Part shown: positions 4,973 through 57,439 of the stretch, one piece after another
Layout of the letters: the number at the start of each line of letters is the position of its first letter
How positions within the stretch are numbered: the stretch's first letter is position 1
Assembly: GCF_006345805.1 (NCBI RefSeq)
Contig: NC_043000.1
Span: 24,800,001 to 24,864,000 of the forward strand
Length of the DNA: 64,000 nt
Direction: 5' to 3'
Source: Octopus sinensis
Taxonomy: Eukaryota
Notes under the pieces: generated by a model
What the model saw: the letters and a program-made list of their open reading frames with translations, nothing else
What the model was told of the DNA's origin: nothing
Databases searched by the model: none
Position numbers and translations under genes: made by a program

Positions 4973-5170
4973 GTTTTTGGATTTGGTTTGCAAGATTCTT
5001 TATGTGAGTTCGTGTGTTGAAGCATATTCTGTTGTGTCTGGGGAGAGTCATTTTCTCTCCCCAGTCATTTTGTGCTTTATAAAAATAAGAAATAAGTGGA
5101 AATTTTACCAGTGAGTGTGTTAAATTATAGGCACAAAAAGAAAATGACTCTCCCCAGACACAACAGAACA
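4973..5170 (-). mobile_element. Fold-back non-autonomous element, PLE-like anatomy
   Basis: Exact 15-bp TSD CTTCTGAAGTATTTT (4958-4972, 5171-5185). Inverted arms TTCTGTTGTGTCTGGGGAGAGTCATTTTCT / AGAAAATGACTCTCCCCAGACACAACAGAA. An unpaired 52-nt tail lies at 4973-5024. Confidence 0.8.
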
Positions 5171-53479: not shown

Positions 53480-53855
53480 TCTTTTACTTGTTTTAGTCAT
53501 TTGACTGCGGCCATGCTGGAGCACTGCCTTTAGTCAAGCAAATCGACCCCAGGACTTATTCTTTGTAAGCCTAGTACTATTCTATCGGTCTCTTTTGCCG
53601 AACTGCTAAGTTATGGGGATGTAAACACACCACCATCGGTTATCAAGCAATGTTGGAGGGACAAACACAGACACGCAAATATACACACACACACATACAT
53701 ATACATATATATGACGGGCTTCTTTCAGTTTCCGTCTACCAAATCCACTCACAAGGCTATAGTAGAAGACACTTGCCCAAGGTGCCACGCAGTGGGACTG
53801 AACCCGGAACCATGTGGTTCGTAAGCAAGCAAGCTATTTACCACACAGCCACTCC
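53480..53855 (-). mobile_element. SINE family A, full length
   Basis: Matches the consensus and carries a private AAGC duplication. An older copy precedes it at ~53030-53402. Confidence 0.9.
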
Positions 53856-54296
53856 TAAGCCTATATATATTTTTTTTTTTTAATATTCTAGTCATAGCAG
53901 CTGTCATTGGGTAAAGGAATTATTGCTAGAAATAATTGATGCAAATGGGTGCGAAATGCTAAAACATTTTGTCAAAAATAATTTCTTACACAAAATTCTT
54001 CATCATTATTTTGTGTCTGAAATTTCATGCTGGTTTAGATTGGACAGTATGTCATGGCCCCAGTTAGTTTTTATTTGCAGTTCCTGACCCTATGATGGAT
54101 GAGAGGACCATATTCCATTCCTAAGTTTCATTCTTGCTATAGGTTTCTGTAGCCAGATGTCCTTCTTAATGTCTTGTCCCTGGCAAGACTTAAGTGTTCT
54201 CTATCTGACATTGCATTTGTTTGTACAAACCAGCATGGCAGATAGGAGGAAAGAAGAAAAGACTGATGAAAGGGAAGGAACAAATGGCAAGGTGAC

Positions 54297-54351
<55 letters not shown>

Positions 54352-55019
54352 TCTTTATTCACCATAAGGTTGAGAAAAAGAGCCCCCCCCCCATATGTGA
54401 ACAGACAAAACAAACATTGGGGTCAGGTTATCGAATGAATAAACAAACAATTAAAATATATACATTGTTATATTTTGGAATGGTCACATTGCCAGTTTAG
54501 CCAATAAAAACACAAGCACTATATATTTGGTGTTATTTTGCTTCAGTGATATTTATTTTTTACATTAATCTTAACCTTATTTCGGATAGAGAACACTTAA
54601 GTCTTGCCAGGGACAACACATTAGGAAGGACATCTGTCTACAGAAACCTATAGCAAGAATGAAACTTAGGAATGGAATATGGTCCTCTCATCCATCATAG
54701 GGGCAGGAACTGCAAATAAAAACTAACTGGGGCCATGACATACTGTCCAATCTAAACCAGCATGAAAATTCAGACACAAAATAACGATGGAGAATTTTAT
54801 GTAAGAAATTATTTTTGATAAAATGTTTTAGCATTTTGCACCCATTTGCATCAATTATTTCTAGCAATAATTCCTTTACCCAATGACAGTTGCTATGACT
54901 AGAATATATAAAAAAAAAAAAAAAAATATAGGCGTAGGAGTGGCTGTGTGGTAAATAGCTTGCTTGCTTACGAACCACATGGTTCCGGGTTCAGTCCCAC
55001 TGCATGGCACCTTGGGCAA
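53773..55019. repeat. ~437-bp inverted duplication (53773-54208 vs 54582-55019)
   Basis: Base-by-base reverse-complement match with about 14 substitutions by eye, plus poly-T length change. Confidence 0.95.
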
Positions 55020-55511
55020 ATATATAGTGCGTGTGTTTTTATTGGCTAAACTGGCAATATGACCATTCCGAAATATAACAATATCTGTTTCAACACCCGA
55101 CTTCACATAAAAAATCTTGCACAACAAATATTTAAAATATATACAATTAAATGAGAATGAGTGATTTACAAAAAATGAAGCGGAGGACTCGGTTGACCCC
55201 ACAAACCACATACTCACACTGAAGACTTTGCTTTCTCCTTTTTTATATTCTCGTTTAGACAGGTTCTTTCACTCACAGCATACTTGCTATAGACTTCCAT
55301 CTTTTACAAAACACACTTTGCGACAGGCATTTCTTCTCCAGCCTTATTTTCCATTTCATGTGGAAAATGAAAAAGTCGATTAGCTTGAGACTGGAGATGA
55401 ACATGCCTGTTGCAATTCCTTTCACTCTCATCTTCCATTCTACCTCTTTTGCAACAGCAACTACCGAGAGAAAACAGGCTCGCTCCTCCCTATTCAGGGA
55501 GGTTGGCAGAA
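54349..55511 (-). mobile_element. 5'-truncated Tx1/L1-clade LINE in a (GA)n/(TC)n microsatellite, split by a later insertion
   Basis: ORF end 55273-55510: ACFLSVVAVAKEVEWKMRVKG...FFIFHMKWKIRLEKKCLS..VFCKRW. The 3' UTR has AATAAA (54354-54359, minus). (GA)n lies at 54299-54348 and 55512-55524. Confidence 0.7.
54465..55131 (+). mobile_element. Fold-back (PLE-like) insertion carrying captured flanking DNA
   Basis: 14-bp TSD TTAAAATATATACA (54451-54464, 55132-55145). Inverted 66-bp arms 54464-54529 / 55017-55082. Tail 55083-55131. Confidence 0.8.
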
Positions 55512-56384
55512 AGAGAGAGAGAGACAACCAGATAAGAAAATTAGAGTGATAAATGCAAATATGTCCAATTTATACTAGTTGAGTAGAACATTTTTTTGAT
55601 TGTTTTGTTTTTGTCAAGGAATTTGGAAAAAAAAATCTAATAAGGACTATTTAATTTTGTAACATCAATTCTAAAAGTAATGAAAAACTCTGGTAATCCT
55701 AATCTCAATTCTGGTAATCACAAGACTAAATCTTTTAGATTGAATATCACTGACTAATTGAAAAGAACTCAAATTTAGTTTTATTTCTCACTAAATACAT
55801 TATCAGCTTTGTCCGTAATTATTAATACACAAGGCAATTGAAACTGAAGGTCTTAATTGGTAATTGATAAGTAAATAGAAATTGGCAGGTACAAAATGAA
55901 AGTAACACCTGTTCGATAAGTTCTTTGTCTAATTACAGAGCGTCTAGCAACCTAAGTCTGAAAATAAGCACATAAAACCTAAAATCTTATATATGTTGGG
56001 CTCATGTATCATCAGTCTTATAAGAGCAGAGAAAGAAAAGATTTAGATGTAGTCATCTAATATCTTATGAATATATGAAACTAAGATTGAAATTTGTTTT
56101 TTCTTTTTAAATTTGAAAAGTAAAATTTATGATCATTTTAACCTTTTAGCGTTTAGATTTCTCTGTTAAATGTAAAGCTTGCTTATTCACATTGTTTTGA
56201 ATTAATTATGCATATTCTTGCAGCTTTGAGATTTTGACGATGTGACTTATTTTTAGAACAATATTTTCTTTTTAAATTTCACATTTAGAAAAGAAAAAAC
56301 TTACGACTATTTTAAAACAATTATGCATTCTTTACATTATTTATATTATTTACATTTGACGGATATTTGTCCTCATCTTGTTTG

Positions 56385-56434
56385 TTGTTAACACAACATT
56401 TCAGCTGATATACCCTCCAGCCTTCTTCAGGTGT
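56385..56434 (-). ncRNA. Minimal hammerhead ribozyme copy (decayed)
   Basis: Minus strand GACAC CTGAAGA A GGCTG GAGGGTATAT CAGCT GAAA TGTT GTGTT. Confidence 0.6.
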
Positions 56435-56518
56435 CTTGGGGAAATTTCAAACCCGGGTTCTCATTCCTAAAGTATTTTTTGAGGATGATGATGGTGATGA
56501 TGATGTTGTTGTTGTTCA

Positions 56519-56591
56519 GGTCACTGTTTGGAATCGAACTCAGAATCTTGGGGTTAGTAGCCCGCACTCTTAACCACTACACCATATGCCC
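56519..56591 (-). promoter_or_regulatory. tRNA-derived head / Pol III internal promoter (not a functional tRNA)
   Basis: GGGCATATGGTGTAGTGGTTAAGAGTGCGGGCTACTAACCCCAAGATTCTGAGTTCGATTCCAAACAGTGACC. A box TGGTGTAGTGG, anticodon-like loop CTACTAA, B box GAGTTCGATTCC. The acceptor stem is imperfect. Confidence 0.8.
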
Positions 56592-57439
56592 ATCATGTTA
56601 ACAACAAACAAGATGAGGAAAATATCCGTCGAATGTAAATAATGTACATAATTCCTCATCTCTTAAATTTAGAACTGTATTATGCATTCATTTAGAAACT
56701 TTAAAATTTGTTAATTATCTGAAGATATAATGAAATTTAAAAAAAATTAATAAACTTACAGCTCAAAATATTATGTATTTTAACATTTGCATGAATGAAT
56801 AATATATAAACTGATAACCGTATCTTATTTTTTTGGGCATCATACACTAATATCCCTGTGGCTCAATGAAAAATCTAACTCCAAAGTTTTTTGATATGTT
56901 ACTATAGTAACCAACAGTTCCTTCCAATAAATACCTGTTAACCCAAATGATGGCATTGCATGTTTAAACTCCTAATTCCAACATGATCGATATATTCAAC
57001 AAAGCTATCTATATAGTTCTACCTAACTGTAAAGTTACAGCAGATCAATCACCACAAAGGTTTGGTGATAGATCAGCAACTATGGATTGGTCGGGAATCA
57101 TACAGCTGAAGATCTTTACATTGAGATGTTTGAAGCTCGGTGAAATCTATTTAACAACCTGCAGTCCAGTCCGTATGGACAAATGATCGACCTCTGGACT
57201 ATCTCTCATATGCTGAGCTTCGCTTTTATTTTGCAGTCTTTTTCTCAGATGTATAAAGCAGCAATGGGTGAATTATATTCCACCAAATACACATGCGCAT
57301 GGAAGAAAAGATGTTAAATGATGGTGATGATTATGACGTTCATATAAACAAATATATATATATATACATGCACTCACAAATATATATATATATATATATA
57401 TACACACTCACAAATATATATATATATATATACACACTC

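Follow-up and report, generated by a model that had tools for sequence, protein, structure and literature searches.

Canonical EN+ Penelope-like elements are described as carrying an inverted pLTR and a tail (PMC8557442, PMC3846280, PMC11167929), with the pLTR and tail encoding the start of the element's ORF (PMC3846280). The origin of the inverted repeats and the tail is presented as an open question (PMC8557442, PMC11167929). Self-priming has been put forward for the inverted repeats (PMC3846280), and the Penelope protein of Anolis cuts and extends both strands, starting at two sites that bound the tail (PMC11167929). The copying of nearby host DNA at integration is on record for other retroelements. 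Templated insertions of L1 are reported as 22 instances among ~3,600 solo insertions, typically shorter than 250 bp and drawn from within 15 bp of the site (10.1101/2024.08.27.596794); three L1 templated insertions are given in PMC11702581, and zebrafish LINEs carry extra 5' nucleotides templated by the flank (PMC4760211).

Here, we describe an insertion of 667 nt that lies within a LINE 3' UTR and is bounded by a 14-nt TSD. The window, meaning the whole 64,000-nt stretch of Octopus sinensis DNA that was analyzed, supplies the coordinates used below. From left to right, the sequence reads as a TSD, the inverted arm, upstream DNA in inverted copy, the forward arm, the tail, and the second TSD (Table 1). 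The initial annotation had ended the left arm at ~54581; the arm is retained but its boundary is moved, as comparison with 13 arms of other copies shows the element running through 54585, and positions 54582-54585 match the donor imperfectly (TCGG vs TCAG). CpG decay as the source of this left-junction mismatch is unsupported, since run X3 (see below) has the donor letter. The inverted patch, previously given as 438 nt, is real and corresponds to 433 donor nt (substitutions in Table 1), with one 2-nt gap that falls in the T run. Its donor is indeed close by, at 260 nt upstream of the insert rather than ~250 bp. The 3-nt CAA microhomology noted earlier at the right junction was also seen in comparison with the arms of other copies. 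The right TSD opens with 5 nt (TTAAA) that recur in the family's terminal sequence (TTAAACG) and so are common to both. A further inverted-repeat pair follows just downstream, at 56307-56672 of the window; its 27-41-nt arms flank 200-280 nt, and it may be a small DNA element.

Table 1. Features of the insertion and its surroundings, in window coordinates
Feature	Coordinates	Strand	Remarks and basis
Patch donor	53773..54205	+	SINE head (to ~53862), T run, 316 nt of unique DNA
Host LINE, distal 3' UTR, up to (GA)n run	54348..54464	-	Paralogue comparison
Left TSD copy, 14-nt	54451..54464	+	Sequence repeat; paralogue comparison
Inverted tail-less Penelope-like arm, 121 nt	54465..54585	-	Begins at the family's fixed inner start site; comparison with arms of other copies
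Inverted copy of 53773-54205, read as a locally templated patch	54585..55019	-	15 substitutions in 433
Forward arm, 5'-truncated	55017..55082	+	CAA at 55017-55019 common to patch; element ORF ATG at 55059
Penelope tail	55083..55136	+	Carries on the ORF's first codons; final 5 nt common to right TSD
Right TSD copy, 14-nt	55132..55145	+	Sequence repeat; paralogue comparison
Remaining 5'-truncated host LINE	55146..55514	-	3' UTR, ORF2 end from ~55256; paralogues

The arms belong to a Penelope-like element of the EN+ type. A 19-base tail pattern has 2,354 matches genome-wide, compared with 1 for the reversed control, and the sequence at 55017-55131, assumed at the outset to be a repeat family, is one with at least 2,354 tail copies. 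That the element is of PLE type, as first suggested, is borne out by long copies in which a single ORF encodes an RT plus a GIY-YIG at the C terminus; the window copy itself has neither RT nor EN. One long copy (L093) holds a 628-aa open frame with RT motifs followed by a GIY-YIG core, in which Pfam places RVT_1 (E 0.004) ahead of GIY-YIG (E 0.011), with neither hit reaching the curated cut-offs. A C-X4-C-X2-C linker directly precedes the GIY-YIG core in L090, L091, and L093. A CX2-5CxxC linker between RT and EN is said to mark the Neptune and Nematis clades (PMC8557442); by the linker alone, the element would be of Neptune/Nematis type. A MITE or foldback DNA transposon was rejected, given arms of variable length (~40 to 1,600 nt), a tail beyond one of them, and an RT encoded by the family.

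Positions 55059-55136 translate to 26 residues that form the ORF start, matching the frame across the tandem junction in L119. Read-through tandems were also found in L089, L114, and L120, and L119-L120 form a tandem array of near full-length copies. The N-terminal part of the family ORF contains an Asn/Gly/Ser-rich low-complexity stretch (L119 tandem junction, L077, and L096), recalling the N-rich inserts of Adineta Penelope elements, and the family 3' UTR has an internal (AT)n run that collects nested insertions (L119, L077, and L096). Rfam searches of L001, L004, and L093 gave no hammerhead hit, only microsatellite-driven matches below gathering scores. By eye, a hammerhead-like core is placed ~235-190 nt from the element end, outside the arms in the window, with folds not above those of shuffles; the core in the pLTR of L004 (L004:1405-1470) has one non-canonical base, and that of an older relative, L022, appears canonical. 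An older related Penelope family is represented by tail fragments 76-80% identical at window positions 4981-5054 and at L037:3237-3343, the L037 copy having an inverted arm.

The survey of the family covered 227 loci (30 + 97 + 83 + 17). These comprised 30 of 45 matches chosen for their similarity to the right arm, 97 regions that take in the first 100 tail-pattern matches (C1 sample), 83 loci that were new matches of one tail variant, and 17 of 39 other tail-search matches. Two opposed arms were present in 145 of the 227 loci. Within the C1 sample, 66 of 97 loci had an inverted arm, which began 53-56 nt from the end in 60 cases. The two-arm form is thus the norm of the family and nothing special to this locus. 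Most family copies are near-perfect palindromes, with a median arm-arm divergence of 2.2% (n=105) and an arm-arm overlap of 1-9 nt in 85/145, the overlaps being slightly inflated because they were taken from BLAST ends. Relative to the tail-less forward arm, the inverted arm was longer in 104 of the 145 loci and shorter in 25. Given that the inverted arm is often longer, a single-cDNA hairpin cannot produce it, whereas two cDNAs from two fixed sites can. The behavior of the Anolis protein fits such a two-cDNA model, and self-priming of one strand fits less well. Foreign DNA at the arm junction, together with the longer inverted arms, likewise favors two cDNAs that were primed separately and then joined at their ends, rather than self-priming. 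Other repeat families, at L137 (~1,400 nt within the inverted arm) and L138, share the two-arm palindromic form, the L138 family having 2,578 candidates.

The right flank of the insertion is a repeat with 1,021 candidates in the genome, and 14 host LINE paralogues were fetched for an empty-site comparison. In 13 of the 14, the 14-mer is single and the right flank follows directly (four have one or two substitutions); the remaining paralogue has a deletion at the site. The paralogues thus supply the empty site in place of an outgroup and show that the insertion cost no flanking DNA. This comparison upholds two statements of the initial annotation, namely that the 14-nt TSD is genuine and that removal of the insert restores a continuous LINE 3' UTR, and it rules out the 14-mer as a mere element end plus AT run. 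Paralogues L033 and L037 hold minus-strand frames, which we take to be RT-like and Cys/His-rich from their motifs, that end ~110 nt from the site, placing the insert within the LINE 3' UTR. This target is atypical of the family: in 176 of 227 copies an AT run comes next, where a TSD is unreadable.

Judged from its sequence, the 433-nt patch is a true local inverted duplication, in agreement with the earlier proposal. Searched against the 2.7-Gb genome, the unique part (53890-54290) matches twice, at the donor and at the copy, and the triple AAGC unit occurs in 2 of 58 matches to the SINE motif, again the donor and the copy. The copy is the derived one because the donor extends on both sides whereas the copy cuts the SINE. 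Fold prediction suggests that the 53773-55019 region would form a 433-bp stem if transcribed; a long dsRNA hairpin of host sequence from this locus is a prediction only.

Local DNA between the arms was found in 5 of the 226 other loci; three of these patches are inverted and two direct, they measure 26-195 nt, and their donors lie on one side or the other at 0.1-1.2 kb. The inverted patches are those of L014 (26 nt; donor 219 nt downstream), L190 (167 nt; donor 117 nt downstream), and L241 (~195 nt; donor 99 nt downstream; its AT run is interrupted by a piece of the element), and the direct ones are those of L050 (29 nt; donor 500 nt downstream) and L121 (161 nt; donor 1.2 kb, or 1,220 nt, upstream). 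The donors of L190, L241, L050, and L121 have no other close copy genome-wide; for the L014 26-mer, searched against the 1.49 Mb of loci only, the best foreign match was 19 nt. The rate in the two pattern-picked sets was 3/180 (1.7%, 95% interval 0.6-4.8%), which corresponds to roughly 40 patches genome-wide, a lower bound because the flanks spanned 1.5-4 kb. With the focal locus included, four inverted donors lie 99-260 nt away and two direct donors 500 and 1,220 nt away, six cases being too few to test. All six patches occupy the center, between the arms, and junction overlaps at patched loci are 1-7 nt, the one observation here that bears on polymerase theta-mediated end joining. The initial annotation regarded such insertions as a route to local inverted duplications. 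Three copies enclosing inverted flank DNA among the 226 other sampled loci, within five recurrences overall, agree with this, but direct captures also occur and donors lie on both sides.

Several other spacers were rejected as local captures: L085 (a SINE, 83% to its neighbor), L154 (a SINE fragment), L137 and L237 (other nested repeats), L138 (a high-copy repeat), L003 (spacer of element sequence), and L145/L146 (one duplicated locus, with a 105-nt spacer 74% like local DNA). In L145 and L146 (G000:C1), the same insertion and spacer appear twice, 40 kb apart, reflecting a segmental duplication or an assembly duplicate. Not counted were L110 (44/170 nt match downstream DNA), L108 (a 405-nt direct pair away from the junction), and L018, L101, and L127 (19-29 nt spacers for which no source was found).

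We interpret the focal feature as a truncated Penelope-like insertion whose opposed arms enclose upstream DNA that was copied as a templated patch during integration, and we assign this reading a probability of about 0.6. The endonuclease would cut both strands 14 nt apart, yielding two 3' ends. The bottom-strand end would prime cDNA at the outer start site (tail, 5-nt TTAAA match), and the top-strand end would prime at the inner start site, ~55 nt further in. Both cDNAs would stop early (120 and 121 nt), for which the usual outcome would be annealing through a few bases. At this locus, the end of the top-strand cDNA would fold back onto a stretch of its own strand that resection had bared 260 nt upstream; fold-back priming presumably used 5 of 6 pairs, one G:T, after which 433 nt would be copied. 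The new end would then release and anneal to the other cDNA via CAA, and the gaps would be filled. For fold-back and copying and for release and annealing, host break repair is favored, with the element's RT a close alternative. Use of the 3'-ended strand at a resected break can account for all six products. Strand invasion by the other cDNA would yield each of them as well, so neither side nor orientation is proof of fold-back, and the perfect match at the presumed priming junction, 1 nt only, speaks against it. The proposal that polymerase switched template onto adjacent DNA during PLE-type integration thus stands for the PLE, the same-age local patch, and its recurrence, but not for the polymerase that switched.

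A broader reading, to which we would give slightly less than even odds, is that Penelope integration in this family may routinely involve a double-strand break whose two ends each carry a cDNA, begun at two fixed sites, and that this intermediate may last long enough to copy hundreds of flank bases, leaving ~40 or more local duplications, half or more of them inverted. If so, a genome rich in Penelope elements would regularly gain hairpins of host sequence from them, and the patches would be an in vivo record of the formation of inverted pLTRs.

An unlikely alternative retains the same timing but has the element's own RT jump from its RNA to a local template, without resection or a host polymerase; the template would be either a nascent transcript from the locus or flank DNA reached through strand invasion. 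A processive RT would suit the long tracts, and template jumping is evident from element-derived snippets at other junctions (L012, L122, L153, L178, and L208). L1 ORF2p reportedly extends DNA ends with DNA as the template (PMC11702581). Against this alternative, the donors found here lie on both sides, in both orientations, and up to 1.2 kb away, as at repaired breaks.

Less likely still, a plain palindrome would have formed first, and its center, broken as a hairpin or cruciform, would have been patched later with local DNA. Palindromes are fragile DNA, and both the palindromic form of most copies and the central position of all six patches suit this sequence of events, but the arm junction is also the meeting place of two new ends. 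Age provides a further comparison. Donor-copy differences at five loci (28/895, 3.1%) agree with arm-arm differences (28/803, 3.5%; Fisher p 0.69), with a rank correlation of 0.9 over the 5 loci (L050 was excluded, its arms being too short). With the modest power of 5 loci and 56 substitutions, this favors a patch as old as the arms and dating from integration rather than from subsequent palindrome repair.

Short reads bear on both the haplotypes and the integrity of the assembly. In run X3 (organism B), one unbroken contig without a link to the insertion site covers 53890-54290. At 11 diagnostic sites, it has the copy's letter at 6 and the donor's at 5, with one private change in the duplicated part, and it looks like a single pre-duplication haplotype. 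The short X3 branch is odd (p 0.054; 0.05-0.09), and the nearby unique flanks differ from X3 at 2/371 sites; faster mutation of both arms of the inverted duplication, or haplotype mixing in the assembly, may be responsible. Run X18 covered only 43 nt of the unique part, and X4, X19, and X21 (3% of X21 read) gave no useful cover. Run X1 may be the assembled sample and would then be independent in method at best. At 2 sites its 183-nt contig agrees with the donor and not with the copy in the assembly, at least 2 of 15 donor-copy differences being absent from it, and none of the listed short-read contigs bridges a junction. An assembly artefact, such as a fold-back chimeric read, is very improbable: the assembly has many indel-like errors in element copies and the X1 contig mixes donor and copy letters, but donor and copy differ at 15 sites, the X1 contigs hold both allele sets, the 183-nt contig ends exactly at the left inner junction (54585/54205), and the perfect TSD matches the empty paralogues.

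Under the preferred reading of a patch templated during integration, the locus can be placed among described systems. With canonical EN+ Penelope elements, it and its family share an RT with a C-terminal GIY-YIG, 5' truncation, an inverted truncated copy at the 5' side, a tail at one end only, a pLTR and tail encoding the ORF start, AT-rich targets, and a TSD. They differ in the tail, ~55 nt here and 30-40 nt there, and in the foreign DNA between the arms, whose source here is traced to the insertion's own flank. Penelope elements of Adineta vaga also have non-element DNA enclosed by pLTRs and a TSD, but their spacers moved in trans or are given in that account without an origin (PMC3846280), whereas donors here are 0.1-1.2 kb away. 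Similar to the templated insertions of L1 and the extra nucleotides of LINEs, a local genomic segment was copied at integration with microhomology. In contrast to the L1 cases, a different order of retroelement is involved, the insertions are fixed in the germ line, tracts are longer and donors more distant, and the patch is enclosed by arms that both represent the same end of the element. L1 twin priming (PMC2912911, PMC12016303) resembles the two-cDNA model in that both target ends prime cDNA, the 5' part is inverted, and the inner junction shows microhomology; here, however, the second cDNA starts at a fixed site, and the two cDNAs span one and the same sequence rather than adjacent parts. 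Fold-back templated insertions at double-strand breaks in yeast (PMC11724301) are likewise inverted local copies primed by microhomology near the break. They are mostly 5-34 bp, whereas 433 nt were copied here, from a cDNA end; this length far exceeds both the yeast fold-backs and typical L1 templated insertions and counts against our preferred reading.

The focal feature is useful as in vivo evidence on Penelope integration. More than 2,000 young copies make patches countable, and the Anolis in vitro system makes the model testable. Patches duplicate host DNA locally, and transcripts of inverted ones would be predicted to fold into long hairpins. The literature searched contained no account of locally templated patches in Penelope elements, most subscription papers lying outside the reach of that search. 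Templated insertions at L1 elements and at breaks are already known, as is host DNA between Penelope repeats; locally templated patches in Penelope elements are apparently new.
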